From NCBI GenBank assembly GCA_012295275.1, contig CM022674.1, positions 14,570,001 through 14,634,000 on the forward strand: a DNA stretch of 64,000 bases. Reading direction: 5' to 3'. Positions 4,870-55,913 of this stretch are shown here, piece by piece. Below the pieces are notes generated by a model. The model was given only the letters and a program-made list of their open reading frames with translations. It did not search any database and was not told the origin of the DNA. A program made the position numbers and the translations under genes. Source of the DNA: Chrysomallon squamiferum (Eukaryota > Animalia > Mollusca). Positions within the stretch are counted from its first letter, which is position 1. Each line of letters starts with the position of its first letter.

Positions 4870-4937
<68 letters not shown>

Positions 4938-5518: not shown

Positions 5519-8500
5519 ATGGTAACTTAAACAACGTTTAATTAATTTATAACGGTTTATAAATATTTATAATATGCTTGATTTATTTTGAGATTTATAA
5601 ATGTTACCGGCTTAGGACCTTCGAAAGTTAAGGACGATTTTACATTAAAAAAGTGATTAAAATGTATTAAAAATGCCGATATTTTATAATAAAGCTTTAT
5701 AATTATGTTATTGTGATATCATGGATATGTTTTAAGGTTAGCAATACTCAAGTTAATGTTTTTAACCCCAAAATCATATGAGCAACATAAACTGAAATAA
5801 AAACTAAAATATTTTAAGTTTAAATAGTAAAAACTAATATCTGAGACTCGATGACAGTGACACGGTCTTAGGTGATAATGTTTAGATAATACACAGGTAT
5901 TACAGTCTCAGCGTGTAGATTAATTGAAAAAAAATCATTTCAAAGCTATTTTAGTGAAGCAACAATTAAATCAGTTTAACAGGTGATATTACCAAAACAG
6001 TTTGGTTTGCTTTACATACATGTATTATTCAGTTCATTGTCAGATCAGTAGCTATAGCAGTTGAAGTTCAATCTGAGTAACTGTAAGAAGTGTTTCTCAG
6101 TGTAATTAATTTATTTATCAATACCATTTATTTACAAATATCTAATAGATATCATCTGTGTTTTACCCAGCTTCCTCTTTAAAAGACACTTTTGAATTAC
6201 CTAGTTTAGTAGTTACAAAATTATTTTGAAATTTTATTTTTTTATTTTTTTATTTCAAGCCTCTTCGACTTGACATAAAGAGGAAACTCTCGGCCAGATC
6301 GGATCGGGTGAAATGTGTTGACCTTCACCCTTCAGAGACATGGATGTTGGCAAGTTTGTACAACGGCAATGTTCACATTTGGAATTATGAATCACAGGTG
6401 TGTTACGTTAAAAATCTTGAAACATTTTCATGTAGTTATAACAGAATATCTAGTCTGTCTAAATACTTATATTCTTAGAAACTTTAATTACTTACAAAAA
6501 GTATGTACTGTTTTGAATCTTAAATCCCAGATTAATTAAGTTTTGCTTAATAATGAACATATTTTAAGTTAGCTGTGAATTAGTGTTACAAAGAATGTAA
6601 TTTGTTTACATTTGTTTTTGTGTTTGTAGCAACTGATCAAATCATTTGAAGTCTGTGATCTGCCAGTTCGAGCTGCTCGCTTTGTGGCAAGAAAAAACTG
6701 GGTGATAACTGGATCAGTAAGTTTTTCATTTTAAACACAGCTCTGTCTCCACAGTTCTTTTCTAAAAACAACTTATTTATTATATAGTCTAAATGGTTTA
6801 CTGTTTTCACTCTTGTTTTAATTATGTGAATCTGATATTTTAATGTGTCAAATTCAGTGAGTGCATTTTGCAGATTACAATATAGTATTAAAATATCTGT
6901 CCTTAGGTCTGTGTGTGTGTGTGTGTGTGTGTGCATAGATATATGTTTAAATTAATTTAAATATAAACAGTTATCTATTTAAGTAATTGTGTTTGTTGAT
7001 GAATGCCATTTTTTTTTTGATTTTTCAGCCAGTATAAATTTTTTTTTTTTTTTTAATTCAGTTTAAATAGATGAATTAACAAATATAACAACAAATATTT
7101 TAAGTTTGATAAAAACAGATTTTAACCAGATTTGCTGAAATTGGACATGATACACTGAAGACTGTTTTAACTTGGTGTACTATCACTCCAACATAGTTAG
7201 AGGAGACTGCAGTTAGTAATTATTATAGGCACTGAAAAGGTTTTGTACAAGAGAGTACATATATACATGTAATAAATTAATTTTCGTTTGTTCCAGGATG
7301 ACATGCACATCCGAGTTTTCAACTACAACACACTGGAGAGAGCTCATCAGTTTGAGGCTCACTCCGACTACCTGAGAGCCATCGCTGTCCATCCAACACA
7401 GCCGTACATACTCACTAGTAGTGGTAAATACACATTTAATTTATACAACACAGCCATACATACTCACCAGTAGTGGTAAATGCACATTTAATTTATACAA
7501 CACAGCCATACATACTCACCAGTAGTGGTAAATGCACATTTAATTTATACAACACAGCCATACATACTCACCAGTAGTGGTAAATACACATTTAATTTAT
7601 ACAACACAGCCTTACATACTCACCAGTAGTGGTAAATGCACATTTAATTTATACAACACAGCCATACATACTCACCAGTAGTGGTAAATACACATTTAAT
7701 TTATACAACACAGCCATACATACTCACTAGTAGTGGTAAATGCACATTTAATTTATACAACACAGCCATACATACTCACCAGTAGTGGTAAATACACATT
7801 TAATTTATACAACACAGCCATACATACTCACTAGTAGTGGTAAATGCACATTTAATTTATACAACACAGCCTTACATACTCACCAGTGGTGGTAAATACA
7901 CATTTCATTTATACAACACAGCAGTATATACTCACCAGTAGTGGTAAATACACAAGTATAAATATTATAAAATGTAAAATAAATATTTTTAAATGAAATG
8001 CTATAAATAGTGTATGTTTGTTTATATGTATGTGTGTGTGTTATAAAATGTGAAGTATGCATCAGATGACATTCTGATACGCACTACAAATAGTGTGTTG
8101 TATGGATATGTTTATAGACGTGTATTGTGCTCGCATATGACATGGTGATAAACATATAAATAGAATAGATGTTTCTGAGTATGTGTGTGTGTGTACACAT
8201 ATATATATATGTATGTATTTATGTATGCATTGTGTTTTCAAAAGACATCTATATAAAAAGTGTATATATGTGTGTGTAATGTGTTTTCTGATCACATGCT
8301 GATATATATTATGTATATTATATGTGTGTATGTGTATATATTATATATATTACAGGTGTATGTGTGTTTTGTGTTTTCAGATGACATGCTGATATATATA
8401 ATATATGTATGTGTATGTGTATGTATTATATATATTATAGGTGTGTGTGTGTTTTGTGTTTTCAGATGACAGGCTGATATATATAATATGTGTGTATGTG

Positions 8501-11500
8501 TATGTATTATATATGTTACAGGTGTGTGTGTGTTATATGTGTGTATGTGTATGTATTATATATGTTACAGGTGTGTGTGTGTTATATGCGTGTATGAGTA
8601 TGTGTTATATATATTACAGGTGTGTGTGTGTTATATGTGTGTATGTGTTATATATATTACAGGTGTGTGTGTTTTGTGTTTTCAGATGACAGGCTGATAT
8701 ATATAATATGTGTGTATGTGTATGTATTATATATATTACAGGTGTGTGTGTGTTATATGTGTGTATGTGTTATATATGTTACAGGTGTGTGTATGTGTAT
8801 GTGTTATATATATTACAGGTGTGTGTGTGTTTTGTGTTTTCAGATGACATGCTCATCAAGCTGTGGGACTGGGACAAGAAGTGGACGTGTACTATGGTGT
8901 TTGAGGGACACACCCACTACGTCATGCAGATTGTCATCAACCCTAAAGACAACAACCAGTTTGCCAGTGCCTCACTAGACAGAACTGTCAAGGTATTTTT
9001 ACTTTTAACAAAGTTCCACAGAGAAAAGTAATTATTATTAAGATGAGTAACACAAAGAATAAGAAAACTACAAATGGCTAGAGGCGTTTCAGTTATGCTT
9101 TGCTGAATTTGTGGAACTCACTTCCAAATAACATCAGTGAGGCTGAAACAACAACTACATTCAAAACACTACTAAAGACCCATTTCTTTCATATCCAGTT
9201 TGCTAGTATACAGTTATGTTTAAATCTTAAAATGTTCAGTCTAGAGTATTTATTATTTTAAACTCATATACTTTTACCACCCTTTTAACATGTTTTCATT
9301 TAATATTTTTAAGTCATTTTATATTTTAGTTTATTAGTTTACACTTTAAAGGACCCTTTAACTTTCTTACAAAGGAAAAATTGCTATTTAAATATGGGGT
9401 ATAATAATAACATTTTTTTTTTTTTTCACTTCTTCAGATTGAAATGAAAAATGTCAGATTATTTTTATTAATTTGGACAAAAAATACATACAGTAATTAA
9501 TAAATGAGATATTTAAGATGTGTTTATAATTGTTTGAAATTTAACTTGATTAATTTTTGTTTTTCAGGTTTGGCAGCTTGGCTCACAGACTGCAAACTTT
9601 ACACTGGAAGGTCATGAGAAGGGAGTTAACTGTTTAGATTATTACTCAGGGGGAGATAAGCCATACTTAATATCAGGTGCTGACGACAGACTAGTGAAAA
9701 TCTGGGATTATCAGGTAAATATAATTTTTATCATATAACTAGTGAAATATATTGTTTGTAAATAAAATTTAATATTTTTGAAATATTACTCAACAAAAAA
9801 ACCTATAGTTTATGCCTTCTTTTCCTGTTTTTATAAGTTGTCTTTTTTTTAAAGTTATATATACTGTAATCTATTTTAAGAAAGAAGTCTGTTACTGTTT
9901 AGTGATAGACAGACAGTTAGAAAAATGGATAGATAAACATGCATTCCCACAAAGACAGAACAGATAAAAAATATAAACTAAATGTTTAATTAATTTATTA
10001 AGGTTTATGTGTTTTAACTGTTTTGTATCAAATTCAGGGTGTGACAACAGATTAAACTCCTGTGTTGTGAAATCCTGTTACTGTAGTGCTTATCATCTGA
10101 TGTCTTATTTGAAATTTTCAGAACAAAACTTGTGTTCAGACATTAGAAGGACATGCTCAGAATGTTTCTGCTGTTTCATTTCATCCTGAGCTGCCCATAA
10201 TTCTGACTGGTTCAGAGGATGGTGAGTTTTATATATAGAGAGAGAGGAGAGAGATATATTTCACATAATAATTTATTTTTACTACTAAAGGATTAAACTG
10301 CAAATATTCTATTCTAGGATCTGTACAGCTCAGACATAGTAGCATGTAAAGAGAAATGTACTGAATTTTAGTGGGAAAAAGATAAATAGTAAAGAGTTGG
10401 AAGAGTTAAAGTGTATACAGACTGGAGAGTAAACATAATTATAAATATTAGTATTTTAAAAGATGTATTTTGCTACAGGGACTGTTAGAATCTGGCATGC
10501 TAACACATACAGACTGGAGAGTACACTAAACTATGGGTTGGAGCGGGTGTGGACTGTGTCATGTAGGAAAGGTTCCAACAACGTTGCTCTCGGATATGAT
10601 GAAGGAAGCATCATCATAAAGGTAAATAAATAAGTCTTATCATAAACATAAGTAAGTAAGTCATGACAAAGATAAGTAAATAAAAAAAGTAAATAAGTCT
10701 TATTATAAAGATATTTAAATAAATCATATTATAAAGATAAGTAATTATCTGTTGTTAAAATGAAAAATGGGCATAAAAGTAAGTAAAGAAATATTTGGAT
10801 AAGTAAATATCTGCTGTGTGATGTGGAGGTTTTTGTGTTTTATTTCAGCTGGGCAGAGAGGAGCCAGCCATGTCGATGGACTCGAGTGGAAAGATAATCT
10901 GGGCGAAGCACGCAGAGATTCAGCAGGCAAACATCAAAGCCATGGGTGACCAGGAGATCAAAGATGGAGAGCGGTTGCCTCTTGCTGTCAAAGACATGGG
11001 CAGCTGTGAAATTTACCCACAAACCATTGCACACAATCCTAATGGAAGGTACTTGATTCTACTTGAGTTTCTTTGTGTTTGTTAATTATTTTGTTAGTGG
11101 AATCTGTTTCCTGTTTAATATTTATAACATACCAGTGATTTACTGCATATTGAATTATGATGTTATTAAACAGACTGTGTTTGTGCTTGCTTTGTTAAAT
11201 TTTTAAACAGTTAAATTGCACTGGTCCTGTGAGGATTGTTATGCAAGCTTATCAGCTGCAGAATGTTTGATTTTACTTGAACATTTTATATACTTTGACA
11301 GTGAAATGTTTTTTCTTGGATTGTTATCTACAGTATGTATATTGATTTCTTGATTTGCTACATGGGGTGCATCAATTTACATTGGTTACTATGAATGGAG
11401 TACATGTTGTTTCTAGTTTCATTCTTGTGTTGAGTATATTACACAAATTGTTTTGTAGGTTGATTGAATACATTACATGTGTTTTTTAGGTAGTTGTGTT

Positions 11501-13840
11501 GAGTGCATTACATGTTAAGTAAATTACGTGTGTTGTTTTCCAGATCTGTGTTGTTTTAATAAATCTGTGTTGTGTTTGTTTTTTAGGTTGTTTTTGTTGT
11601 GTTTAGTAAATTTATGTGTTGTTTTCTAGGTTTTGTTGTGTTTAGTAAATTATGTGTTTTGTTTTGTTTAGTAAATTTTTGTTGTTTTCTAGGTTTTTGT
11701 TGTGTTTAATAAAACTTGTGTTGTTTTCTAGGTTTGTTGTGTTTAGTAAATTACATGTGTTGTTTTCTAGGTTTTTATTGTGTTTAGTAAATTATATGTG
11801 TTGTTTTCTAGGTTTGTTGTGTTTAGTAAATTACATGTGTTGTTTTCTAGGTTTTTGTTGTGTTTTAAATTTGTTTTCTAGGTTTGTTTGTTTTCTAGGT
11901 TTTTAGTTTGTTTTTTTGTGTTGTTTTCTAGGTGTTTTTGTTGTGTTTAGTAAATTTACTAGGTTTTGTTGTGTTTCTTACATGTGTTGTTTTCTAGGTT
12001 TTTGTTGTGTTTAGTAAATTACGTGTGTTGTTTTCTAGGTTTTGTTGTGTTTAGTAAATTACGTGTGTTGTTTTCTAGGTTTTGTTGTGTTTAGTAAATT
12101 ACGTGTGTTGTTTTCTAGGTTTGTTGTTGTGTTTAGTAAATTACGTGTGTTGTTTTCTAGTTTTTTTTGTGTTTAGTAAATTATGTGTGTTGTTTTCTAG
12201 GTTTTTGTTGTGTTTAGTAAATTACGTGTGTTGTTTTCTAGGTTTTTGTTGTGTTTAGTAAATTACGTGTATTGTTTTCTAGTTTTTTTTTTGTTTTCTA
12301 GGTTTTTTTCTTTTTTGTTGTGTTTAGTTAAATTAGTTTTTTGTGTTTTGTTTTCTAGGTTTTTTGTTGTTGTTTTGTTGTGTTTAGTAAATTACGTGTG
12401 TTGTTTTCTAGGTTTGTTTAGTTAGTGTGTTGTTTTTCTAGGTTTTGTTGTGTTTAGTAAATTATGTGTGTTGTTTTTCTAGGTTTTTTTGTGTTTAGTA
12501 AAGGCTTTGTTGTTGTGTTTAGTTTGTTGTGTTTAGTAAATTACGTGTGTTGTTTTCTAGGTTTTTGTTGTGTTTAGTAAATTACGTGTGTTTTTTCTAG
12601 GTTTGTTGTGTTTAGTAAATTACGTGTGTTGTTTTCTAGGTTTGTTGTTGTGTTTAGTAAATTACGTGTGTTGTTTTCTAGGTTTGTTGTTGTGTGTGGT
12701 GATGGAGAGTACATCATCTACACAGCTATGGCTCTGAGAAATAAAAGTTTTGGTTCAGCTCAGGAGTTTGTGTGGAGTACAGACTCCTCGGTGTACGCAG
12801 TCAGGGAGGGATCAACCAGTGTGAAAATATTCAAAAACTTCAAAGAGCAGAAATCTTTCAAACCAGACTTTGGTGCAGAAGGTAAATCAATTTCAGTTTT
12901 ATCTTTTGTTTTGAAATAATTTCTTCACTTACTAGTTAAAAATATAAAAAAACACAAAACATTATTATGTTATTGTTATATTACTGTTGTTATTTAATTA
13001 TAATTATTATTATTATTATAGGTATTTGTGGAGGGTTTATGCTTGGTGTTAGATCTGTCAGTGGTTTGGCATTTTATGACTGGGACACGACAGAACTTGT
13101 GAGGAGAATAGAAATCAGCCCCAAGCAGGTCAGTGAAACAAGTTAGACACAAGTCTCAACATTAGTGTAATGTTATAATTACACTATGAAACAAGTTAGA
13201 CACAAGTCTCAACATTAGTAGTGTAATGTTATAATTACACTATGAAACATGTTAGACACAAGTCTCAACATTAGTAGTGTAATGTTATAATTACACTATA
13301 AAACAAGTTAGACACAAGTCTCAACATTAGTAGTGTAGTGTTATAATTACATTATCAAACAAGTTAGACACAAGTCTCAACATTAGTAGTGTAGTGTTAT
13401 AATTACACTATGAAACAAGTTAGACACAAGTCTCAACATTAGTAGTGTAGTGTTATAATTACACTATGAAACAAGTTAGACACAAGTCTCAACATTAGTA
13501 GTGTAATGTTATAATTACATTATGCAAGTTATCTTTCACTGCTTTGTCAGAGATAGTGTTACAGTACGTTACTGTTGTGTTATTAAAACTTGTTGTTACA
13601 GATCTACTGGAGTGAGACAGGTGAGTTGGTGTGTATTGCCACAGAGGAGTCATTTTTCATCTTGAAGTACAGCACAGAGGCAGTGGAGCGTGCACGCGAG
13701 ACCAAGGAGGGAGTCACAGAGGATGGGATTGAAGATGCCTTTGAGGTAAATCTTAATTATCATCTCATAACATTTTTAAACACATTCACATATTCACTGT
13801 GAAATATATCCCTTATTTTACTCTTCCTTATAACTGAGTA

Positions 13841-13912
<72 letters not shown>

Positions 13913-16900: not shown

Positions 16901-19900
16901 TCAACAAGAAAGCTGCTGAGTCACTGGCTGACCCGACTGAGTACGAAAATCTCTTCCCAGGTCTGCGAGACGCGTTTAAAACTGAGCAGTTCTTACAGCC
17001 TCAGAGAAAACTACTTCCACCAGCTAACCTCTTCACTAAAATACCTGTAAGTTAAACTACTTCCTCCAGCTAACCTCTTCACTAAAATACCTGTAAGTTA
17101 AACTACTTCCTCCAGCTAACCTCTTCACTAAAATACCTGTGAGTTAAACTACTTCCACCAGCCAACCTCTTCACTAAAATACCTGTAAGTTAAACTACTT
17201 CCACCAGCCAACCTCTTCACTAAAATACCTGTGAGTTAAACTACTTCCTCCAGCTAACCTCTTCACTAAAATACCTGTGAGTCACACTTTTAAATCAGTG
17301 ATCTCTTCACTAAAATACCTGTGAGTTACACTTTTAAATCAGTGATCTCTTCACTAAAATACCTGTGAGTCACACTTTTAAATCAGTGATCTCTTCACTA
17401 GAATACCTGTGAGTTACACTTTTAAATCAGTGATCTCTTTTCTAAAATACCTGTGAGTTACACTTTTAAATCAGTGATCTCTTTACTAAAATACCTGTGA
17501 GTTACACTTTTAAATCAGTGATCTCTTCACTAAAATACCTGTGAGTTACACTTTTAAATCAGTGATCTCTTCACTAAAATACCTGTGAGTTACACTTTTA
17601 AATTGGTGATTATCTGTTTAACAAATAGCTGGATTTGTATAGCATATTGCAAGTATCAGTTTAAAGTATTCTGAACAAATAATTTATGTATGTTCATAAA
17701 GAATATTATTTTCCTCTGGCTCTTTTTTGGATTATGAATTATATGTAATATTGATATAAAAAACAAGAGAAACATTAAAAAATAATTTTTTTTATTATGG
17801 CAGGCTAACACTGAGAGGAATCCTGTTGAGGAGATGAAAAGTGCAGAGGAAGCTGGCAATTTTATCTATGCTGCACCAGTGAAGTCCGACAATGATGATG
17901 TTGATGATGAGGAGGAGTTTGATGATGCTGCAGAAAAGCCAGAGGTAACGACAGAAGAAGAACAAAGAAAAGAAGTGAGATGTAAAAACAGCTGTAGTGT
18001 TAGTTTATAGAAAAGTTTAAACTGATTCAGGTTTATAGAACAGACAGGATTATAGCAAAAAGAAATAAAAGACTTAAAGTGATTTGTAAAATTTTAAAAA
18101 AATATAGAAAAGGCAAAGTTGATTGTACTGTAGTTTGTTTGAAGTAATAGTCAAATTATTTTCTGTTGTATCCTTTTCCCAAACTGCCCACAGGTGAACC
18201 ACTGCAGCAAGTTTTTTTCCCTCTTTGATTTTAGTTTTATATTTCTACAAAACTTGTGTTCATTTAGAATAAATAGTAATAGGTATTTGTGAAAACGGTG
18301 AGTTGAGGTGTTAATTAAGACTTTACAGGAAAAAGGTTTAATTGTATGTGTCACAAAGTTATAAATGAAAGAGTGTTTCTGTGAAAGAGCAGATGTGCAT
18401 GGTTAATAATAATATTCAAGCACATAAAAACTGAATTACTATTAACATTTGATTGTAATATACAGTTTGAATGAATTTCTGATAATCTTATTTTTTAAAG
18501 TTAACAATGTTAAAAGCTTGTTAAATGTTAATAATTGAAATGTTTTATTTTTGATTACGTTAAACCAGTTCTTATCCAGCAATGTTTGTTCTACAACCTT
18601 GTTTTGTTTTGTTTTCTTTGTCTGTGAAGGAATCGTCATTACCAAAAGCCAGTTCTTTGCCCCCTCCGGCTCCCCCCACAGTAAAACCTGACACTAAGCC
18701 CGACCCTCCCTTCACAGCAGCCACGAGTGAAGCCACTGAGGCTGCGGCAGAGTCAGATCCAGCCACAAACAGCCGCACGATGGACGAGATAGAAAAAGAG
18801 CTGGAACTTGATTTAGAAAACATTAAAATAGACGATAACATTGACACAAGTGTAAGTATTATTAAACTAGCTAACACTGATACAAGTGTAAGTATTAAAC
18901 TAGATAACACTGACACAAGTGTAAGTATTAAACTAGATAACACTGACACAAGTGTAAGTATTAAACTAGATAACACTGACACAAGTGTAAGTATTAAACT
19001 AGATAACACTGATACAAGTGTAAGTATTATTAAACTAGATAACACTGACACAAGTGTAAGTATTAAACTAGATAACACTGATACAAGTGTAAGTATTAAA
19101 CTAGATAACACTGACACAAGTGTAAGTATTAAACTAGATAACACTGATACAAGTGTAAGTATTAAACTAGATAACACTGAAACAAGTGTAAGTATTAAAC
19201 TAGATAACACTGAAACAAGTAAGTATTGAACTAGATAACACTGAAACAAGTGTGAGTGTTGAACTAGATAACACTGACAAGTATAAGTATTAAACTAGAT
19301 AACACTGATACAAGTGTAAGTATTAAACTAGATAACACTGATACAAGTGTAAGTATTAAACTAGCTAACACTGATACAAGTAAGTATTGAACTAGCTAAC
19401 ACTGATACAAGTAAGTATTGAACTAGATAACACTGAAACAAGTGTGAGTGTTGAACTAGATAACACTGATACAAGTGTAAGTATTAAACTAGATAACACT
19501 GATACAAGTGTAAGTATTAAACTAGATAACACTGACACAGGTGTGAGTATTAAACTAGATAACACTGACACAAGTAAGTATTAAGCTAGATAACACTGAC
19601 ACAAGTGTAAGTATTAAACTAGATAACACTGATACAAGTAAGTATTGAACTAGCTAACACTGATACAAGTAAGTATTAAACTAGATAACACTAGTGTTGA
19701 ACTAGATAACACTGATACAAGTGTAAGTATTAAACTAGATAACACTGATACAAGTGTAAGTATTAAACTAGATAACACTGACACAGGTGTGAGTATTAAA
19801 CTAGATAACACTGACACAAGTAAAACTAGATAACACTGACACAAGTGTAAGTATTAAACTAGATAACACTGACAAGTGTAAGTATTAAACTAGATAACAC

Positions 19901-22210: not shown

Positions 22211-22241
<31 letters not shown>

Positions 22242-33300: not shown

Positions 33301-33979
33301 TTTGATAAACCAGATTTTTCATCATCTGCTCAGCTGTGTCGCACACACAGTGATGTACAAGAGGAATTATGAGAAAGGAAACTTGACAATGACATAAATT
33401 ACTCTTTTTTTAAAACTATCAGTACGTGATTTTTTTTATATAACCCATAGAAAATGATACACACAGGGAGAATTTTCCTCTTCTGACTTCTAGTCTAAAA
33501 TTATTTTTTATTTATTTATTTATTATTTTTCTTTCCATTTACTGTCATTCATTTATGAACAAAGAATGATTTAAATCTGTACCAGCTTGTAACCAGAAAC
33601 AAAGCAATCACTTGGAGGTAGGTGCTCTGCAAGTCTCACTAGAACAGTTTAAATATTTAACTGGGTTCAGTTTTTACCACAAACACGGACCTTACCTTGG
33701 CAACAGCAAGCTTGAAACAAAAAGATAAAATACATTTTCACAACTCTTAATTATACACAATTAATATTTATTATAAATATCTGTCTGCTTCACAGCACTA
33801 GATGTTTGTGATTATAAACAATCACACACACACACACACATGTATGCATGCACACACTCACACACATACACAAACACACGCACAGGCTCAATAACTTGCA
33901 AACACAAACACAATAACACAAATCCTCACAGACAAACAGATTATCACTGTGAGTTGTAATCTATATGCATCTTTCATTT

Positions 33980-34042
<63 letters not shown>

Positions 34043-34234
34043 AACACACTCACACTCACTCCCTCATTTAACTAATAGTATATCCATTTCAATGACAAAT
34101 GTAGGATACATTAAATGATAAATATTTTCATATATTACACAGTTATATGTATTTTGGTTATATATCTTTGTACGTGCATGTTTTTGTTCATTGATTTGTG
34201 TGTGTGTGTGTCTGTCTGTGTGTGTGTGTGTGTG

Positions 34235-34285
<51 letters not shown>

Positions 34286-43200: not shown

Positions 43201-43716
43201 ATATTAATTCTTCAAACAAATCAAAATTACTGTTAACAATTTTTATTTTGTAGAAAAATAAATTATTAATGTATCACAGGAAAGGATTTTTGGTTATAAA
43301 ATAAATTACACTTTGATCTTACCAACATTTTCTGAAGATTCAGTTTCAGGGACATCTGACTCTTCAAAAGTTGGTGGTGGCCTAAAAATAATTAAAATAA
43401 CTGGATATGATTTTCACTCATAATAAATAATAAATACAGAAACACACACAAACAACAATGTGGTCATTAATTATTTTATTACTGAAAATTATGAAATGCA
43501 AATATTGTTTGAAAACTTATGTTGTTCTGCTTTATTCATATAGTGTTTTGTTGACAATATGGATAAAAAAAAATAATAAAAAAAATATATATATATATAT
43601 ATAAATTTATAAAATATCATCTCCAAAACAAGATGGAAGTATTTAATTTATTTAATTAAAACTGATATTAAACTACTGGACAGAGCATAGCTGTGAAATA
43701 TATTTTCTTCTCTTCC

Positions 43717-43766
<50 letters not shown>

Positions 43767-45278
43767 GAGAATTTGTGATAACTGACTATAATGTAAAACT
43801 CAATAATTTTACCCTCTAAAAATCTCTTTGATGCTAGTAGAAACACAAAAAGTTAAAATAAAGTTCAAGAAATCTACTTTGTATTAGTTTCTGAAGCTTC
43901 TCAATGTTAGTTGCATCATTCATCAACAATGTAAAACTAACAACACAGCAGCTGCACTGATTGCTACAGATATAAATAACACAGATACTACTAAATAGAT
44001 ACTGACTACAACAGATATAAATAACACAGATACTACTAAACAGATACTGACTACAACAGATATAAATAACCCAGATACTACTAAATGGATACTGACTACA
44101 ACAGATATAAATAACCCAGATACTACTAAATAGATACTGACTACAACAGATATAAATAACCCAGATACTACTAAATAGATACTGACTACAACAGATATAA
44201 ATAACCCAGATACTACTAGATACTGACTGCTAGATATAAATAACCCAGATACTACTAAACAGATACTGACTACAACAGATATAAATAACCCAGATACTAC
44301 TAAATAGATACTGACTACTACAGATATAAATAACCCAGATACTACTAAACAGATACTGACTACAACAGATATAAATAACCCAGATACTACTAAATAGATA
44401 CTGACTACAACAGATATAAATAACCCAGATGCTACTAAATAGATACTGACTACAACAGATATAAATAACCCAGATGCTACTAAATAGATACTGACTACAA
44501 CAGATATAAATAACCCAGATACTACTAAATAGATACTGACTACAACAGATATAAATAACCCAGATACTACTAAATAGATACTGACTACAACAGATATAAA
44601 TAACCCAGATACTACTAAATAGATACTGACTACAACAGATATAAATAACCCAGATACTACTAAACAGATACTGACTACAACAGATATAAATAACCCAGAT
44701 ACTACTAAACAGATACTGACTACAACAGATATAAATAACCCAGATACTACTAAATAGATACTGACTACTACAAAGATATAAATAACCCAGATACTACTAG
44801 ATACTGACTACTACAGATATAAATAACCCAGATACTACTAAATAGATACTGACTACAACAGATATAAATAACCCAGATACTACTAAACAGATACTGACTA
44901 CTACAGATATAAATAACCCAGATGCTATGCAGTCTCATTGTCAAAATGAGATGGGTTGTTCTTCTTTAACACTCTAAGTACTTTCAATCTGGCACAAGTA
45001 ATGAACAGATTTTACACTGTGTATCTTCAGTATTATTCTTAGACAAAGGTTTTTAACTTACCTTAAACAGAACAAATCAAACGCCAGCGAGACAAGACAA
45101 GTTATTTAGTAAATAAAGATTTCTGATATTTAAAGATTATGAAGAATATAAGAAATCACTGAGGTAGTTTGGGGTGACCTTTCTACTATGTGTGTGAGGT
45201 TTAAAAAAAAAATCAACTGAAAAACCTTTCTAGTATTTTCAACCTATTACAATTGTCAAATATTGTTAAAATAATAAT

Positions 45279-45333
<55 letters not shown>

Positions 45334-48300
45334 GTTATAATAATAAATTAGTTGACCTGAATTCTTAAGGTTCTCTTTTAACACTAATCTGAACTGTACA
45401 GGTAATTAATCCAAGCAGGGCCTGAAATCAAAACTTCACTGCAAAAACTAAAAAAATCAAGAACCAGTTATTTTAGAGTACATAGTGAGTAGAAACCTGA
45501 ATCAACACAAAGATGTGAGTACACTGACATGTCTGCAGCCTGTAGTGAGCAACTCACACCTGTTTACTCACCTGTGTATTGGCAGCTGTCTCTCTTCGTA
45601 CAGAGTTTTCTGATGAACGAAATCATCAGTTGATGAAGCTGGTTCTGCTACTGGACTAGGTCTTTGAAAAGTAACAAGCAAGTAGCAGAAGTAATATTTA
45701 AAAAAGAGAAAAGAAAAAACCAGTATAAAAATAAATATTAGTAATCTATAACCATTAGCAGAAATAAAAGATTTTGAATATGTTATCTACTTGGACTAAA
45801 ATAAAAAATGGATATTAACTATATTATCTACATGGATTAAAAACTAAATAAGATGTATGAATAAACTATATACTTGGATAAAAAAACTAAATATTATATT
45901 AATTATACTATATACATGAATTAACAACTAACTGCAATAATAAATATATTATCTAACTGTGTTAAAAACTAAATCAGATAATAAACATATTATCTAATTA
46001 GATAAAAAGATACCCAGTATTTCTGAAATTAAAAACTAACTGCAATATCAAATATACTAGTAAATAGCAAAGAAAAAATGTACAAAATAAAAAAATTTTA
46101 ATTAAAAGATAAAGAAAAAACTAAGAACAATGTAAGAGGTTATGACATGTAAACTAGAAGATTATCTAATTAATAAGAGAAAAATTCAGCTGAACTGCAG
46201 AAATTTTATTTCTCTATGTTTACTAAAAAAAATATTTTATCAGTGGTGTAATTTAAAGAGTTTAAACCAAAATGGAGGTTCTACCTTCTGGCTGTGGGGA
46301 GTGGCCGCTCGTCATAGCGTGGGGGGCTCTGTGGGGGTGTTTGAATGTCTTCCACCATTCGTGGAGAGGTTTTTGTCTTTAAAGCTGGAAGAAAAAATAA
46401 AAAAATAGAAAATTACAATAAAATAAATTCTTTATAAACTATATATAAGAAAAAAGCCAATAATTTTTCATTTATTTATTTATTTATTTAGTTTTGCCTC
46501 TTCTGTTGCTTTTAACATTGCCTCAGATTTTTTCATAAATATTTAATATTCAAATTGTTACACATTATTATAAATAAATTTAAAAATATTTTGTTGATTT
46601 ATGCCTACATAATGATGTGTTTGTCTTTGTTTGTGTAAGTATACATGTGTGTGTGTATATGTGTGTTTGTGTGTGTATACATGTGTGTGTATATGTGTGT
46701 TTGTGTGTGTGTATACATGTGTGTGTATACATGTGTGTATGTGAATATATGTGCTATGTATATATGTGTGTATATGTGTTTTTGTATGTGAATATATGTG
46801 TTTGTGTGTAATGAATGTATGCATTATGTATGTAAAGTTAACTTATACAATTCTGTATAACTCACTGTAATCAGATGATAAGTCAAAGGCCTAAAAATAA
46901 AAATATATAAAAAAATTCAGATGAATAAAACTGACATCTTTGTGAAACATTCACATTAATAAAACATAATGAATGAATGAATGATTAGCAGTCACAAGCA
47001 CTTATAAAAGAACAAATACAGAATAATTTACTGATTAAAAGCATGCACAGCAAGGTTTAAATTTTTCACAAATGATTTCTAAATGTGGTTGCTGTATGGA
47101 TCAAGGTAATCCGAGTAGATTAACTCACTGGATTAAGGCCAAGAAGTTCTGAAATGCGAAGGTCTGCATACGCCTGGTTTCTGTATTCGTCCATCTGCGT
47201 CTTCTTCAACTTGGCTTTGTCGTAATCTTCACTTTCCACCGCCTGCCTCTTCTCCACCTCCATCTTACCCAGCCTCTCTCCCACCTAGCAGCAAAAACAT
47301 CTATTTTTAAACCCATTACCTAATAAACATTAGCCAACAAAATAAGTACACATATTTAAATCACTATTTTTTTTCTTAATTAAGTAAATAATATACACAT
47401 TAATGAGTGAAATAAAATAAAATTATTAAAAGGTAAGTCTTTCACTGAGCCAGATAACTAAGCAAGACAAAACAACATGATTTCTGATGACTTCATCATG
47501 GCTTCTTGTCTAGCTAGATTAGGCTGGAAATGGAAAGTAAGGACTCAGGTCTTGTTAGGGCAGTTCCAGAAATTAGCATGGGTGGGGCTATAACTTTATA
47601 TATAATGATAAATATAGCATTTTTATTTTTAATTATAAATGGTGGAAATAAAGATTAAAAACAATTAAAATGATTATGTATATAAATTTATTTATTTATT
47701 TATTTATTTACTTATTAACCTCCTACAGACTTAAATCCTATGTGGTTATTTCTGGAACAACCAAAACAGAAAGAAAGAGTATTTATTGTTTTAACTGTTG
47801 TGAGTTACTAGTTTTCTAATGTACACTTTGCAACCACAAAATTATATTAAAAAAATATTAAATTTTTTTTTAAAACAATAATAATAATAATAATGATAAT
47901 AATAATAATAATTAATAAAATAAAATTATTTTTGCATTACTGTTATTATTATTTTTTTTTTTTTAGACACTTCTGTTGGTAACAGAAATTATAAAACAGT
48001 TCAAAATTGACTGTAATATTATTATTCTTTTTATTATTATTATTTTTTTTTTTTTTTAATTAATGTTAAACATCTGATCAATGTTTCATAGAAAATGTAC
48101 ATTAAAAAACCTAAAGCATATTTTGTTAATTAGGAAAGCTTAAAAAAGGGTTTAATGTTTAAATTAGATTTTCTAAAACATTTTTTTACAATAAAGCCAA
48201 ATCATGTTGTTTCGAGTCTTGCAAAATTAAATTATGCAAAAATTAATAAAATAATTTAAATATAAAAATTAACATTTTCGAAAAACAACTGAGTTAAAGA

Positions 48301-50162
48301 AATAAATAATAAAATTAATTTAAATATAAAAATATAGAAATTAGTTTCACACAACTAAACAATGCTTCATTGTTAATTAATAATTAAAAGCTTTACTTTA
48401 CAAGCACCTCTAACTAAATTAATCATTAATCTCTCTACATGTTAGACATCATGACAGAGAAAGTAACTTTTTTTTCTTCACAATTCCTTATTTATTATTT
48501 GTCATTAATTTGTTATTTTTTATTTTATTTATATATTTTTACGGATAAAATATTTATGATTTTTGAATATATCATTTTAAAAAAACATTTTATAAAGGAA
48601 TTTAATTAAGTTTTAAGTGAAAATCTTTAAAAAAGGCTTTTAGTTTGTCATAAAAATTCTTAAAAATAAACAGTTATTATTTCTTTTTTTTCCTTCAATG
48701 GATTTATTAGTGTACACATTAACTGTCTTAACTGATAATCACTTCAAATATTTCACAATTGTTTTTAATATTCTGTGAAGGAAAGATAACAATTAATACT
48801 TCATTTGCCTTTCAATGGATTTATTCACTGTAAACATAGTAAATTAAATAACTATTTTGAGTAAGACAAGGATTAGACATTATTTCTGGAACTGGCTAGA
48901 AGAGAAGAAAGCAGAGACAAGAAGCCGTGAAGAGAGATCACCCTGTAAGAAGAGTATTCCAGTTTTATACGCAGGGAGTCTGTGTCATTCAGTGAGACGT
49001 CTATAGGTTCCAGTTTCTTCTTGTATCGCTGCAGACGGTGAGAAAATGTTGGGTTTGCTACACTCGTTTCGGGTTCGGGTAAAACGGAATAGTTTCGTTT
49101 GTGGATGCTTTGATCATCAGGGACTTTTACAAGTTGGTCGTAACGTTTAAAGTGAGGTGAATCGACTGGTAACCAGTAGGGATCGTCTTCCGAGTCTAAA
49201 CTCGTTTCAAAGTCAGCAAGTGATGTGAACGTCTGCCCTCCGTGTTTGAATCTGACATTTTTCTTCCTCACCGGTAGAGGGTTAAACTGGTTGTCGGAGG
49301 GCAGGAGGTAGGGGTCATCGAGTACACTGTGTGACACACTTTTGACAGGGACCCAGTAGGGGTCTGAGTTTGTGTCTGTACTCGCCACTGGCTCAGTGAG
49401 GTAAACAGGTGGGGGAACATCTTCTAACGACAGCTGTAAACAAACATTCCTAACAACATCATCTCTCTAAACTCTTGTACAGTTCAACACTTTTAATTTT
49501 AATATATTATGTAGTGACATTAATAAGAGAAAACAGTTTGAGTTAACAAATTTCAAGTTTATAATTTTGGTATCTCTATATTTAAAGTAAAAACTGACTA
49601 CATCTCAGTTATCTGTCACATGACATGGTTACCTGTATAACATTCAAATTGATTCATAATTAATTAAATAAGTGATATAAAACTGAAAACTGAAAAAAAA
49701 CAAAAAAAAAATATGTTTTTCAACTCTCCTGTACAAATAATAAATTAAATAGCGACAAAAACGTTGTAAAGTTTCATTATCAAAATAATTAGAGAATGTA
49801 ATAAACACAAAACACACAGGTGTGTTTGATTAGTTGTAATGAAACACCTGACATTTGACTTGTTAGTGATTATACCTAAAACCTACCTTTTGTAATTCAG
49901 AAATTGCCTGCTTCAGTTTCTTGGCAATGTCGTATTTTTCCTCTGAAATACAAAAATAAACAATTATAATAAATGCTGGATGATCATGTAATTACTTGAA
50001 TTAACAACATATATTTCAAAACCGTATCATACATTTTAATTAGTCTTCAAATGGTTTACTTTTATTTTGTACTAAATTGTTAATCAGGTATAATTATATA
50101 GCTTTGATTACAAACATATTTTTAAAGAACATTTTGAAAAGTTAATAATGAAAAAAAAAAAA

Positions 50163-50193
<31 letters not shown>

Positions 50194-50226
50194 TTGATGA
50201 GGATAATATTAATGAGGATGAAGAAG

Positions 50227-50268
<42 letters not shown>

Positions 50269-53200
50269 TAATAATAATAATAATAACAATAATAAAAAAA
50301 ATGATGAGGATAATATTAATGAGGATGATGAAGAAGATAAAAATAATAATAATAATAATAATGATGATGATAACAATAATAATAATAAATATAAAACCAC
50401 ATTAAATCTATTACACATGCTTTGAACTGAAATCATATTTGTAACAAGGTAAAAGAAAACTTACGTATGACAGCTTCTTGTTTTTTCTTCTCCAGTTTAC
50501 GGATGAGTTGTGCAATCTCTGGGTCCTGGTACATGTCAAAGGCCAGGTCGTCCAGTGGAGAGATGTAGTCTGGTCTGTAATAGTTTACATAATACATAGT
50601 CTGGTCTGTGATAGTTTACATAATACATAGTCTGGTCTGTGATAGTTTACATAATACATAGTCTGGTCTGTAATAGTTTACATAATACATAGTCTGGTCT
50701 GTAATAGTTTACATAATACATAGTCTGGTCTGTAATAGTTTACATAACACATAGTCTGGTCTGTAATAGTTTACATAATACATAGTCTGGTCTGTAATAG
50801 TTTACATAACACATAGTCTGGTCTGTAATAGTTTACATAACATATAGTCTGGTCTGTAATAGTTTACATAATGCATAGTCTGGTCTGTCATAGTTTACAT
50901 AACACAAAGTCTGGTCTGTAATAGTTTACATAATGCATAGTCTGGTCTGTGATAGTTTACATAACACAGTCTGGTCTGTGATAGTTTACATAACACATAG
51001 TCTGGTCTGTGATAGTTTACATAACACAGTCTGGTCTGTGATAGTTTACATAACACATAGTCTGGTCTGTAATAGTTTACATAACACATAGTCTGGTCTG
51101 TGATAGTTTACATAGCACATAGTCTGGTCTGTAATAGTTTACATAAGACATAGTCTGGTCTGTAATAGTTTACATAGCACATAGTCTGGTCTGTGATAGT
51201 TTACATAATACAGTCTGGTCTGTAATAGTTTACATAGCACAGTCTGGTCTGTGATAGTTTACATAACACATAGTCTGGTCTGTGATAGTTTACATAACAC
51301 ATAGTCTGGTCTGTAATAGTTTACATAACACATAGTCTGGTCTGTGATAGTTTACATAACACATAGTCTGGTCTGTGACATAACACACACAACTTACACA
51401 TCTGACAGTGTATTTCTATACAACATGAAAACACAAAACTGTATCTAACAACACATTTTAAAAAGTTATGTATTTGATACCAGTGTGTGTTTATATTTTT
51501 CTATAACCACAAATCAGAGTGTATGTTCAGTTTTCAGTAATACACTGTTAGTAAATATTCCTTCAGTCAAAAATACATTTGATTCACTACTAACAAATAC
51601 TACAATGAGACCACATAATTAACTTTTTAATTAGCAGGAAGTAGTGTTCTATATGTACCTTCCAACAGACAGGAAGAGTAGCTAACTACTGACAGTTGCC
51701 ATTTTGCAGATTTTGTACACATTTGTGTGTGTGTGTGTGTGTGTGTTTTCTTTCTGTGTGGTTTTTTGTTTGTTTTTTTAAAGTTAAATATAATCATAAA
51801 TATGATATAAAAAAAATCTTACAAAAATTTCTATATTGTTGCAGACAAATCTAACCAACCTGTTTAAGTAGCCATCAATGACAGGATCTTTGTCTAAATT
51901 TCTTGAATCTGATACTTCCACAAAGGGCTCCTGAAAATAAAGTTAACCAAAAATTACATAACAATTTATTTTCTCTAAAAAACAGCTGAAGCAAAATTTA
52001 CTACTTTACATCACAATTTATTTTCTCTAAAAAACAGCTGAACATATGGTGAACATATGATTTATTTTATAATGTTTAACTGCTTTTCAACCAAAACACA
52101 ATATAAAAACCAGTTGAAATGACAGGTATCATGTAGAGATAATCAGTGGTGTATATTTAGTTTCATTACAGTCTTACTTTTTTATTTTATGATTCCCTCA
52201 GTTAAAAACAAGAGTTATACATATTGCTGTTAAACAGAACAGAACAAACATAAGAAATAAATAAATACACACATACATACCTACATGCATATATACATAC
52301 ATACATACATACATATACACATACACACACATACATATATGCATACATAAATAAATAAATAAATAAATAAAATTATACTAATAATAAAAGAAAATAACAT
52401 TAGAAATAAAATTACAAATACATAATTAATAAAATCACTTACAAAACAAAACAAACAAACAAAAACTGATAGTGTGTTACTTACATTATCTGACATTCCT
52501 GTACCATATGGCAACTTGCTACCAATAACATTGATAGCTACAATCCCCACCTGAAAAAAACAAAACAATGAATATTACATGTATATTAATTAAAACCCTA
52601 AGAGATTTATGAAATATTTTACAAATAACTGAATTTTACCAGATAAAAATATAACAGTGTTTTCACAGTGAGTGCAAATGGAAGAGGCCATGTTTTAAAC
52701 TGCTGTATGTATGACACACACCAGTCTCAGACACTGGACAACTCTGAACATTCCAGAGTTAAATTTGAGAGGTCAAACAATGATTCTATGTTAAAACTAT
52801 ATGTACAATGAAAAAATGCACTTACTGAATAAATGCCATCTTTTATATGCCTATTTTGGCTCTGGTGTTTTAGTTAAAGCATTCAGTTATATTATTTTTA
52901 TGCTAAATTATGCATATTTTCTGTTTAAGTTTATTGAAATAGATATTGTTTAGGATCAGGGAACTGATTAATTCATTTCCATTCTTTTTTTTTCAAACAG
53001 CTGAGAGTTCAAATGGATTTTTGAAAAAAATTAATTTCAAAATAATCTTAAATGTTAAAATAAACATTAATTAATTAATTATATTCATATGTTTATAAAA
53101 TAATAACATACAACACACTCATTCAGTATTTTAACATTTTTATAATTAGCTGGTTGTACAGTAATTATTTTAATAGTTACCTGGTTATACAGATTGAACC

Positions 53201-53374
53201 GGTTGACATGGTTTTTGTGGATGTTCAGTTTTAAAAACAGCCCAACAGCATCAACATGCACTGACTTGAGTTCCCTCGCCTTGTACCCCGTTTTCTCATT
53301 GTCTGACAGAGACACATAGCTGAAAAATACTTACTTCTCTCAGCTTGTTTATTTTTAATATGGTAGTAGTAGTA

Positions 53375-53410
<36 letters not shown>

Positions 53411-55632
53411 TAAGAATAAGAATAATAATAAAATAAGAATAATAAAAATATACAAAAATTAGAATAAATCTATAATATTAAAATAATAATAACTACAATA
53501 AATAATAATAATAATAATATAACAAAATGATGATAATAGTAATAATAAAAATAAAAATAATAATAATAATAATAACATGGACATCAATAACAATAAATAG
53601 AAAAAACAGAAAAAGAAAATGAAGAAGAATTAAAATGGAAGAGTACTGATGTCTGCGTAGTTGTTACTCACCCCAGTCGTGTGTATCTGACGTTGTCAAG
53701 ACTCAGTGGAATGCCATCAGGAACATCTCCAACAAAAAACTCAATCTTTGTTGCTGGAAAACAACAAATCAATAACTGCACTACCATTATCTATATTTAA
53801 ACACAAAGATCACAAATAGATTTTCTTTTTAAATTATTAACATTTCAGACTGAAATGCACACCACATCAACAACAACAACAACAACACTGACTTCACATA
53901 ACATGTCTCATCAACTGAAGGTTATGTTATGACAAGATATTTGGAGACAGAACATTAAAGTGTTGCTAAGCTTTATTTATAAACAAAATATTCAATAACA
54001 CATATGAAGAAATTTGTGAATATACTGTGTATATAATTTCACTATTTAGTAATAATGGTAACATACACAAACAAAACTATGTGTGTAATTATACAAATAA
54101 TGTTTTACACTTGCACATTTGCAATAAACAAAGAATAATACATTTCTACACCTGTGTTTATTTCACTAATTTATTTACACAGAGTACACAACATTTCATG
54201 AAAACAAACTATTGGTTACCATCAGTTTTAAAAATGCAAGAAATAAAGGATATTATATTTATTACAATAAACAGCTTATGAAAAAAATATATATAATTTA
54301 AAATATTATTAACATTTTGGGGAATTTTATTTTATTTATTTTACAATATAAAACATTAGTTCTTCTTCTCTGTCGAATGCTCAGACAGGCACCCCAGATT
54401 CTTCACTTGCATAATCAAAAATATACCTGTGAGAAACTGACCCCAGAGGGGTCTTCAGCCTTTTTTCTGGGGGTTGCGAGATTGTTTTGAGTGAGGCTAT
54501 GTTTTCGCTTTTTTCAACTTGATTTGGAAGGAGGAATAAATAAAAATGTATAGTTAGGTTTTGGACCCGTCATAGTGAATATAGATTCCTTTTGAACTGT
54601 CTTTGGTTGATGAAAATATGGTAACCCTAGACATCATTGAATCAAAATTTTAAAGGGGTTCATCGGTCATACTGAGTTGCTCATAAGAGGCTGCAGCATG
54701 AAAAAGGTTGAAAAACCACTGTTTCAGAATATATAATATTATAATTAAAAATACACCTATGAGATACTGATGAGATAAAAGTTGTATTTTGTAGATTTCT
54801 GTTGTTTTAGAATATATAATATTATAATTAAAAATATACCTATGAGATATTGATGGCACAAAAGTTGTATTTTGTAGATTTCTGTTGTTTTAGAATATAT
54901 AATACTATAATTAAAAATATACCTATGAGATATTGATGACACAAAAGTTGCATTTTGTATATTTCTGTTGTTTTAGAATATATAATATTATAATTAAAAA
55001 TATACCTATGAGATACTGATGAGATAAAAGTTGTATTTTGCGTATTCTTGTTCTTTGGTCAAGCTGGATAACAATGTCCTGTGGATACAGACAGTATCTG
55101 AAAACAAAAAAAGATATAATTGAATACAACTGACCTTTCCATTTTCAAACAAACAATAAAATAATACTGAAAACTTGTTGCTTTCATTAAAAAAAAAAAA
55201 AACAGCAACATATATAAAAAAATAATAATACTAATAATAATAATAATTTAAAATATTGTTCAAACTATTAACTTAAAAAATTGATTTAAAAGTGAATCAA
55301 AAGAAGACTGATAAAAATAAATAAGGAGAATTTTATGCCACTTTTTTCTTCTTTTTTTTTTTTACATAATTGAAATTTTAGGTGTCATTATCTCTGTTTT
55401 AAAAATTGTTTTAAGTATAAATGTATGTATTTTAAATATAATTACCTAAATTTTAACTATAATAATATATATTTTAAGTATAGTTATAAGTATAATTTAA
55501 GATATTATTTATTAAATACCTTGCAGAAACCCATCCTTTAGTGAGTGGGCTGTGATTGTTCAGTTCTGCTGCTCTGTAACTGTCATCCTGCCCTGATGCA
55601 TGCACAACTCTGAATGGAATCTTTACTGGCAT
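24354..55632 (-). CDS. CEP104: Centrosomal protein 104 (jelly-roll, TOG, Zn-finger), ~28 coding exons, ~875 aa
   Basis: Exons: 55632-55520, 55097-55006, 53753-53672, 53319-53181, 52550-52485, 51930-51860, 50574-50465, 49942-49887, 47284-47129, 46890-46866, 46384-46285, 45661-45572, 43381-43323, 43161-43088, 41680-41513, 40463-40402, 39733-39661, 39151-39086, 38798-38677, 37993-37676 (with an internal 83-bp duplication), 36619-36524, (33710-33696, optional), 31575-31531, 31132-31071, 28501-28393, 27226-27088, 25659-25519, 24415-24354. Diagnostic motifs: LSDNEKTGYKARELKSVHVDAVG, SPLDDLAFDMYQDPEIA, YDERPLP, CIFCGE...GLDLHFWKSCP, HCPLCH. Confidence 0.94.
24710..25522 (-). repeat. 42-bp array (~18 copies) containing the CEP104 penultimate-exon donor
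   Basis: Minus-strand unit TCAA|GTAGATTATCACTTTAAACACTGACACACTTACATACA; degenerates away from the exon. Confidence 0.9.
25624..26645 (-). repeat. ~240-bp higher-order repeat carrying the acceptor plus exon start, with nested ~21-23-bp units
   Basis: AGAACTTGAAGCAGCTGTAAACAG recurs at ~25646, ~25887 and ~26091; the inner unit is AACATTTTATATTAACTATTGAC. Confidence 0.85.
27500..28185. repeat. ~62-64-bp mid-intron minisatellite derived from GATA/GACA-type simple repeats
   Basis: Unit AGACAAATTAACAAATGTACAGACAGTCAGATAGATACACAGATAGAGATAAAAAGCTAGACAA. Confidence 0.85.
28487..29005 (-). repeat. 31-bp array (~16 copies) containing the CEP104 Zn-finger exon acceptor
   Basis: Minus-strand unit TTTTTCTGTGTTTCAG|GATCTGTATTTTCTG; the real acceptor precedes 28501. 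Confidence 0.93.
29305..31096 (-). repeat. ~1.8-kb composite donor array (42-bp and 19-bp units)
   Basis: Minus-strand units ATGATGATGATGTGTCACTGATGGACAA|GTAAGTAAATGTTT and ATTGT|GTAAGTAAATGTTT are interleaved; the real donor follows 31071. Confidence 0.95.
36635..36990. repeat. 60-bp tandem repeat just upstream of a CEP104 acceptor
   Basis: The 60-nt lines starting at 36661, 36721 and 36781 are identical. Confidence 0.9.
37771..37933 (-). repeat. Exact 80-bp exonic tandem duplication (period 83) inside a CEP104 exon
   Basis: 37771-37850 is identical to 37854-37933, separated by TTC. Confidence 0.95.
39156..39398. repeat. 30-bp array (~8 copies) abutting a CEP104 acceptor
   Basis: Unit AAAATAAATCAATGTTAACTTTCACAGGTT. 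Confidence 0.9.
39735..39868. repeat. 33-bp array (~4 copies) abutting a CEP104 acceptor
   Basis: Unit TGAAAATAACACAGTACTTGTTATTAGTAACAG. Confidence 0.88.
40500..41507. repeat. Related ~21-bp and ~60-bp arrays filling most of a CEP104 intron
   Basis: Shared core TGTAAGAAATGTTTT; 21-bp units lie next to the donor at 41512 and ~60-bp units lie toward the next acceptor. Confidence 0.85.
41664..42715 (-). repeat. ~52-bp array (~21 copies) containing a CEP104 acceptor plus the first 17 exon nt
   Basis: Minus-strand unit ATAATTTAATTAAATAAAACAAATCAAACTTGTAG|GTGTCTAAAGCGTACTC. Confidence 0.94.
43964..44927. repeat. 45-bp minisatellite (~21 copies), CEP104 intron
   Basis: Unit CTACAACAGATATAAATAACCCAGATACTACTAAATAGATACTGA. 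Confidence 0.92.
47558..47762. mobile_element. Putative MITE (~205 bp)
   Basis: Imperfect terminal inverted repeats GGGCAGTTCCAGAAATTAGC / GGTTATTTCTGGAACAACC with an AT-rich interior. Confidence 0.4.
48873..49433 (-). CDS. Candidate alternative (cassette or terminal) CEP104 exon
   Basis: Acceptor TTTACAG at 49434-49440 is in phase 0 with the upstream exon. 186 open, GC-richer codons inside an AT-rich intron. Possible phase-0 donor AGG|GTGATC after 48942. Confidence 0.6.
   Translation of the reverse strand: MSLEDVPPPVYLTEPVASTDTNSDPYWVPVKSVSHSVLDDPYLLPSDNQFNPLPVRKKNVRFKHGGQTFTSLADFETSLDSEDDPYWLPVDSPHFKRYDQLVKVPDDQSIHKRNYSVLPEPETSVANPTFSHRLQRYKKKLEPIDVSLNDTDSLRIKLEYSSYRVISLHGFLSLLSSLLASSRNNV
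50566..51380 (-). repeat. 31-bp array (~26 copies) containing a CEP104 acceptor
   Basis: Minus-strand unit TGTRTTATGTAAACTATYACAG|ACCAGACTA; the real acceptor precedes 50574. Confidence 0.94.
54430..54721. mobile_element. Possible hAT/Charlie-type transposon remnant
   Basis: The right end reads CAGTGGTTTTTCAACCT on the minus strand, a typical Charlie-family terminus. The left end was not identified. Confidence 0.35.
54722..55040 (-). repeat. 83-bp array (~4 copies) containing the CEP104 exon-2 3' end and donor
   Basis: AAAATACAACTTTTATCTCATCAGTATCTCATAG|GTATAT recurs, with donors at ~55005, 54922, 54839 and 54756. Confidence 0.9.

Positions 55633-55878: not shown

Positions 55879-55913
<35 letters not shown>

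Follow-up and report, generated by a model that had tools for sequence, protein, structure and literature searches.

Tandem arrays spanning exon-intron junctions in COPB2 and CEP104 of the scaly-foot snail Chrysomallon squamiferum

Host genes and the array catalogue

The window, that is, the whole stretch of 64,000 nucleotides analysed here (assembly GCA_012295275.1, contig CM022674.1, positions 14,570,001 to 14,634,000), is eukaryotic DNA with a GC content of 24-33%. Exon models were built from tblastn matches and GT/AG edges for the following three genes, which combined comprise 53 introns, 106 splice sites and 42.9 kb of intron.

5519..20485, + strand: COPB2 (coatomer beta'), 21 coding exons, placed by tblastn against named homologues; intact frame, three joints in RNA
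24354..55642, - strand: CEP104, 29 coding exons, placed by tblastn against named homologues
57694..61487, + strand: DFFB, 6 coding exons with an unbroken translation; hosts two near-donor arrays

The COPB2 frame of 970 aa is intact with the donor at 17974, as shown by RNA. Gigantopelta aegis provided the closest named match for DFFB (80%) and CEP104 (84%), followed by abalone, which points to a snail, likely close to the neomphalines; COPB2 is too conserved for such a placement, springtail and centipede outranking snail among its matches. One candidate sequence, P0001, matched an exon at 100% and was divergent beyond it, and was rejected as belonging to another species.

Several features of the gene models deserve mention in their own right. 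CEP104 and DFFB are arranged head to head across 55642-57694, and their locus tags are adjacent in some other molluscs; in several of these, hits to both genes also carry one and the same longest-contig size. Intron 16 of COPB2 (15583-16234, + strand) is of the GC-AG type in the frame-preserving model, and the CEP104 model contains a micro-exon of 15 nt (33696-33710, - strand). A further CEP104 exon, 492 nt long and in frame (48942-49433, - strand), is found in the Gigantopelta protein and missing from the compared abalone isoform; from this comparison it is likely an alternative exon. Upstream of COPB2, a small multi-exon membrane-protein gene (about 2900-5083, - strand), which is taken here for TMEM107 from its motifs, has four introns without any minisatellite above threshold, and a degenerate 29-32/86-bp array at 1261-1484 lies outside the modelled genes, falls below the threshold and was left uncounted.

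One CEP104 coding exon holds an exact 83-bp tandem duplication (37771-37933, - strand) with a 3-nt filler at its joint, by which the frame is shifted, and CEP104 is in frame only when one copy is omitted. The best acceptors for a splice that would restore the frame score -1.5 to 1.2, against a median of 12.1 for real acceptors, and the exact pattern of the exon with the duplication had 0 matches in metagenome contigs. The duplication may be an assembly error, a broken allele or an unusual new intron.

The initial annotation of the window had named twelve arrays as containing their own real splice junction. When copies of the junction were searched in the adjoining intron at each of the 106 sites, at least one match was obtained at 18, namely at all twelve of these arrays, whose units and starts agree with those first given, at one older array (from the donor at 41512), at one decayed repeat (10622) and at four sites with a single match, which were treated as chance. 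The twelve junction-spanning arrays are divided into six donors and six acceptors on both strands, each unit combining 4-39 exon nt with intron nt, and 108 donor and 94 acceptor copies with an intact dinucleotide were listed in them.

7394..7954, + strand: COPB2 donor array, 52-bp unit (30 exon + 22 intron nt); 10 decoy donors; first copy real, intron from 7424
8250..8853, + strand: COPB2 acceptor array, ~85-bp unit with a nested 49-bp unit; 3 intact decoys; last copy real, intron end 8843
11400..12695, + strand: COPB2 acceptor array, ~41-bp unit; 24-28 decoys; decays away from the exon; intron end 12681
17008..17610, + strand: COPB2 donor array, two different units over one donor, 46 bp beside the exon and 44 bp farther off; 12 decoys; intron edge 17047, RNA joint 17046-17804
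18834..20069, + strand: COPB2 donor array, 33-bp unit; 30 decoys, of which the first 10 keep the frame and contain no stop; intron edge 18852, RNA joint 18851-20450
24710..25522, - strand: CEP104 donor array, 42-bp unit with 4 exon nt; 15 decoys; intron start 25518
25628..26600, - strand: CEP104 acceptor array, ~200-240-bp unit that includes 32 exon nt and contains a smaller 23-bp repeat; 2 decoys; intron end 25660
28486..29017, - strand: CEP104 acceptor array, 31/23-bp units; 16-17 decoys; intron end 28502
29304..31096, - strand: CEP104 donor array, 42-bp junction unit plus 19-bp sub-unit; 24 full decoys; intron start 31070
41664..42719, - strand: CEP104 acceptor array, 52-bp unit with 17 exon nt; 20 decoys; intron end 41681
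50566..51376, - strand: CEP104 acceptor array, 31-bp unit with 9 exon nt; 25 decoys; intron end 50575
54720..55040, - strand: CEP104 donor array, 83-bp unit with 35 exon nt; 3 decoys; intron start 55005

At each of these twelve, the array extends from the exon edge into the intron, as had been proposed. Other arrays begin or end close to a junction, or derive from one, as follows.

40505..41155, - strand: older 61-bp array from the 41512 donor junction, with AT in place of GT in 8/8 matched copies
41143..41507, - strand: 21-bp array beginning 5 nt past the 41512 donor and separating the exon from the older 40505 array
13134..13524, + strand: 56-bp array beginning 5 nt past a donor, its unit without exon sequence
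36640..36866, - strand: 60-bp array ending 20 nt short of an acceptor
39156..39397, - strand: 30-bp array ending 4 nt short of an acceptor
39735..39868, - strand: 33-bp array ending 1 nt short of an acceptor
59301..59579, + strand: ~45-bp array beginning 33 nt past a DFFB donor
60543..60772, + strand: 44-bp array beginning 28 nt past a DFFB donor, absent from the initial annotation
10611..10780, + strand: short, decayed repeats derived from the donor junction at 10622, too weak for the array threshold and uncounted

About six near-junction arrays had been claimed; all six were found, with gaps of 1-33 nt, and the array at 60543 (28 nt) makes a seventh. The estimate of about four mid-intron arrays is corrected to three (15869, 27525 and 43966), the array at 40505 being an older copy of the 41512 donor junction.

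Concentration at exon edges and array anatomy

For counting, an array was defined by Tandem Repeats Finder (TRF) as a period of at least 18, at least 3 copies and a score of at least 150, thresholds that are the analyst's own choice. This yielded 23 intronic intervals, merged into 22 arrays covering 33% of intron DNA, which are distributed as 7 per 20 introns in COPB2, 13 per 28 in CEP104 and 2 per 5 in DFFB. As the null, each array was collapsed to one unit, and the seeds were placed at random either in their own intron or in any intron. Under raw TRF coordinates, 9/22 arrays overlap a junction, compared with an expected 4.8 (own intron, p=0.024) or 3.4 (any intron, p=0.003), a modest excess under the own-intron null. 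With three boundaries corrected by the junction-copy search, the overlap rises to 12/22 against 5.3 (p=0.001) or 3.9 (p=7e-5). Fourteen of the 22 lie within 5 nt of a junction (p=4e-5 or less), and 19 within 35 nt, where 8.2 (own) or 6.0 (any) would be expected and which was reached in 0/200,000 simulations under either null.

The same contrast is visible in the rates, into which the four array-free introns of the fourth gene were also taken: 2.0 arrays per kb were found at edges and 0.12 per kb in intron interiors, a difference of about 17-fold (binomial p=1e-8). Edge sequence makes up 9.3 of the 34.2 kb of collapsed intron, and the interiors hold 3 of the 22 arrays instead of the ~16 expected. 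The enrichment over random intronic positions, which the initial annotation had proposed to examine genome-wide with TRF and shuffled intronic positions, is thus borne out within the window; since the window was chosen for its pattern, these figures describe the window and not the genome. In this stretch 12 of the 106 splice sites, about one junction in nine, are spanned by arrays. When metagenome contigs were scanned for COPB2, 79 loci totalling 583 kb were obtained, with 9 TRF rows above threshold; these loci look like transcripts or intron-poor genes, because their matched spans are near coding length, and they provide no animal control.

The claim that the arrays expand introns was well founded, as they account for the greater length of their hosts: the median length is 1134 nt for array-bearing introns, 500 nt for the same introns once their arrays are collapsed, and 453 nt for the 33 array-free introns.

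The units are local. Among the 23 array stretches of the window, 15-mers are shared only between the adjoining arrays at 40505 and 41143, which argues against a mobile unit, and no common unit or termini indicative of a mobile element or dispersed satellite family were found across the loci of the window. Apart from the 40505 array, no clear likeness to their own exon edges was detected in the three mid-intron and the tested near-junction arrays. The 40505 array is identical to the 41512 donor junction in 38/46 columns. In addition, donor 17047 is covered by two different units, the 46-bp one adjoining the exon and the 44-bp one lying beyond it. The two units at 17047, together with the old GT-less and the younger array at 41512, suggest that junctions were seeded more than once.

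Decay with distance from the exon, another element of the initial annotation, was recovered in one form and less clearly in another. Identity to the real junction drops with distance in 9/10 arrays, five of them at p<0.05, and such a drop toward the far copies is expected for any end copy. The reference-free test of homogeneity is borderline (p=0.06), with the exon side higher in 13/19 arrays, the far side in 5 and one tie. The growth direction read on the + strand was unbiased (13 vs 6, p=0.17). As regards polarity, the frame-preserving model takes the exon-side copy at all 12 junction arrays, as had been asserted, but that copy is not unique in preserving the frame, as in-frame, stop-free decoys occur at 18852 (the first 10), 12681 (2) and 28502 (3).

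Arrays in reads and the choice of splice site

Eleven sequencing runs were listed (9 with part of COPB2, 3 studies), and four of them were compared as contigs on 16850-20600. In the DNA runs X2 and X4, which represent two samples from two studies, contigs run from unique flanks into both tested donor arrays (17008 and 18834). The depth of one collapsed unit is 1791 and that of the flanks 103-165, in keeping with the roughly 10 occurrences of the unit's words in the window. Both arrays are real, so that the possibility of an assembly artefact, which the initial annotation had named as one refutation, is answered for these two by the contigs that enter them. A loose end at 18861 marks a difference between X4 and the window in the first unit of the 33-bp array. 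Contigs collapse the arrays, and within this limit the depth of X4 suggests a copy number like that of the window or slightly above it. For the same reason, uncovered bins in the 33-bp array were not taken as absence. Individuals differ in their introns: a mostly intronic X4 contig of 1157 nt carries 10 other letters and 7 gaps relative to the window.

Most of the decoys are as strong as the sites they resemble. When scored with a matrix built from other sites, 95/108 donor and 56/94 acceptor copies equal or exceed the real site. In the RNA runs X8 and X9, two samples of one study, the only joints are 17046-17804, 17974-18630 and 18851-20450, and no array-derived spliced joint was seen in their contigs over 16850-20600. 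The exon-proximal donor is therefore used in 2/2 tested donor arrays and 2/2 RNA runs, and use of the exon-side copy at the other ten arrays, acceptors included, is read from the reading frame. The claim that splicing ignores the decoys is consequently upheld with the scope of two donor arrays. Nonsense-mediated decay is not what hides the decoys at 18852, because ten of them are in frame and stop-free; no such decoy is present in the other five donor arrays. Minor use of decoys may nevertheless occur, as contigs drop rare variants and a low-depth X8 contig (17020-17095) runs through the first donor (17047) into the array.

Two further observations were made in the same RNA contigs. At COPB2 exon 19 (17945-17974, + strand), the donor at 17944 (score 7.8) is passed over for that at 17974 (6.8) in both RNA runs, which adds 10 residues; the two are possibly alternative donors. 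Because the stronger upstream donor is skipped, strict first-come scanning is not the whole rule. Both X8 and X9 also show a loose end at 20209 (+ strand) in COPB2 intron 20, past the array, where the contigs pass into sequence outside the window, perhaps a dispersed repeat.

Possible origins and known counterparts

The reading favoured here, on balance and without great assurance, is that these are mirage-type minisatellites, skipped by splicing at both tested donor arrays, which arise from preferential small tandem duplication at exon edges. The process would begin with a duplication of 30-80 bp at or beside an exon edge, most probably where recombination or break repair, begun in the conserved exon, misaligns in the more polymorphic intron. 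Survivors would be those that keep one intact exon, which may be the cause of the outcome seen here, arrays that point intronward with the exon-side copy real. From general minisatellite biology, unequal exchange and slippage would then amplify the unit and the junction would be reseeded, older copies being displaced outward and decaying. Finally, the spliceosome picks the position beside the defined exon and not the strength of the site, as observed at two donor arrays and as presumed for the acceptors, and the decoys would be tolerated by-products that lengthen introns. Birth by recombination or break repair is favoured because it is in keeping with donors and acceptors being hit alike, with a comparable array frequency across the three genes, with the repeated seeding and with the intron differences between individuals. 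A wider version can be offered tentatively, as a possibility short of an expectation: in this snail, and probably in many marine invertebrates, small tandem duplications would be concentrated in germline hotspots at exon edges, seeded repeatedly, with old arrays pushed inward and decaying, so that much intron DNA would be edge-made and hundreds of perfect decoys would be kept silent by position-based exon definition.

The initial annotation had left the cause between a mutational process focused on exon edges and a selection filter that spares the exon. A filter explains the polarity but cannot empty the interiors, so a bias of birth or of retention at exon edges is likely needed.

If the bias lay in retention, arrays would be born uniformly and interior ones deleted, exon-anchored arrays being either not removable whole or kept as an aid to weak sites. 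Array-bearing sites do score slightly lower (leave-one-out medians of 6.3 vs 7.7 for donors and 6.8 vs 11.0 for acceptors), and three long CEP104 introns (2813, 2120 and 1657 nt) are without an array, both of which suit this account. The weakness is, however, not significant (p=0.33 for donors, 0.15 for acceptors) and may itself result from an array replacing the pyrimidine tract; moreover, an anchored array can contract to one unit, and one-sided anchoring should not yield an excess of ~17-fold. Biased retention is therefore regarded as unlikely.

A bias of birth might also stem from germline damage linked to transcription or splicing, such as polymerase pausing, R-loops and nicks, followed by fill-in or end joining and not by recombination. 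Polymerase pausing, R-loops and breaks are linked. Spliceosome recruitment is described as lowering R-loops (PMC7931591). Seven arrays that begin or end 1-33 nt from a junction without including it would suit a lesion zone, as would the filler at the joint of the exonic 83-bp duplication suit end joining or fill-in. Nevertheless, the array frequency is similar in COPB2, CEP104 and DFFB, which are probably expressed at different levels, donors are hit as often as acceptors, and a literature search for such a hotspot gave nothing relevant, which leaves this route a rather poor prospect.

That duplication is uniform, acted on by the selection filter only, with the excess a local fluctuation in a hand-picked window, is improbable: the polarity would be fully explained and a quarter of the collapsed intron already counts as edge, but a filter against exon damage cannot deplete the interiors to three arrays. 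A functional reading of the splice-site multiplication named in the initial annotation would make the decoys a ladder of alternative sites or a path to new introns and exons, and the ten in-frame, stop-free donors at 18852 could be so read, as could human 6-16 and CBS, which use the nearest one or two pseudo-sites according to PMC1557585, and the proposal in PMC3087553 of intron gain from mirages. However, neither a used decoy nor a new intron or exon was observed; the first donor stands alone in both RNA runs, five of the six donor arrays offer no in-frame stop-free decoy, and all gene models close without array-derived exons, so that functional decoys are given very little weight. An assembly artefact deserves almost no credence, for even though no listed contig spans a whole array, several bins of the 33-bp array are uncovered and the reads cover 2/12 junction arrays, contigs of two DNA runs join unique flanks to the units at both arrays with raised unit depth, and the copies carry ordered variants and nested units.

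Arrays of this kind have precedents. In amphioxus, tandem repeats over exon-intron boundaries were described as 'mirages' in Adh3 and globin genes, on both sides of introns and with splicing undisturbed (PMC3087553), an account in which the origin of the repeats is called unclear; troponin C and PGBD5 are further loci (PMC3902484). The snail arrays agree with those of amphioxus (Adh3, globins BflGb6 and BflGb9, troponin C, PGBD5) in having boundary-spanning units of tens to ~200 bp on the donor or acceptor side, many copies with GT/AG, normal splicing (here at the two donor arrays tested) and several affected genes per genome. Their units are locus-specific, occur at 5' and 3' boundaries and keep GT/AG, which is lost in the older 40505 array. 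The differences are that a gastropod and not a cephalochordate is the host, and that density was counted here and compared with a null; for amphioxus, the repeats are reported to be unstable in length, both from allele to allele and in somatic tissue.

In the human F7 gene, a 37-bp VNTR of intron 7 places its first unit over the donor, with identical pseudo-sites next to it, and the most upstream donor is used even where some pseudo-sites are stop-free; the identical downstream donors are functional yet unused, and similar arrays are described in CBS, 6-16, LMNB2 and PDGF (PMC1557585). These human arrays are few and scattered, and donor-side in the text of PMC1557585, whereas those of the snail are frequent and half of them acceptor-side. 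The Rogers model of intron gain by tandem duplication of AG/GT proto-splice sites, as outlined in PMC3087553, shares the tandem duplication of splice signals. In contrast, the arrays here fill existing introns, no new intron was seen, and the one purely exonic duplication, of 83 bp, is without a credible acceptor.

A genome-wide mirage count or a report from gastropods, the scaly-foot snail included, was not found in the literature covered, which excludes most subscription papers, so that this absence carries little weight. A genome with arrays over roughly one junction in nine would allow a direct test of whether duplications are born at exon edges, and of how splicing finds the real acceptor when 20-28 copies of equal strength lie upstream of it; such arrays can also mislead gene prediction. 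The lineage-level mechanism suggested initially is not supported as a novelty, since the structure has already been published for amphioxus and several human genes. The arrays are members of this described kind, unusually dense; what is new here is the density, the quantified edge excess, the aged GT-less array and the RNA evidence, from two donor arrays, of skipped in-frame decoys.
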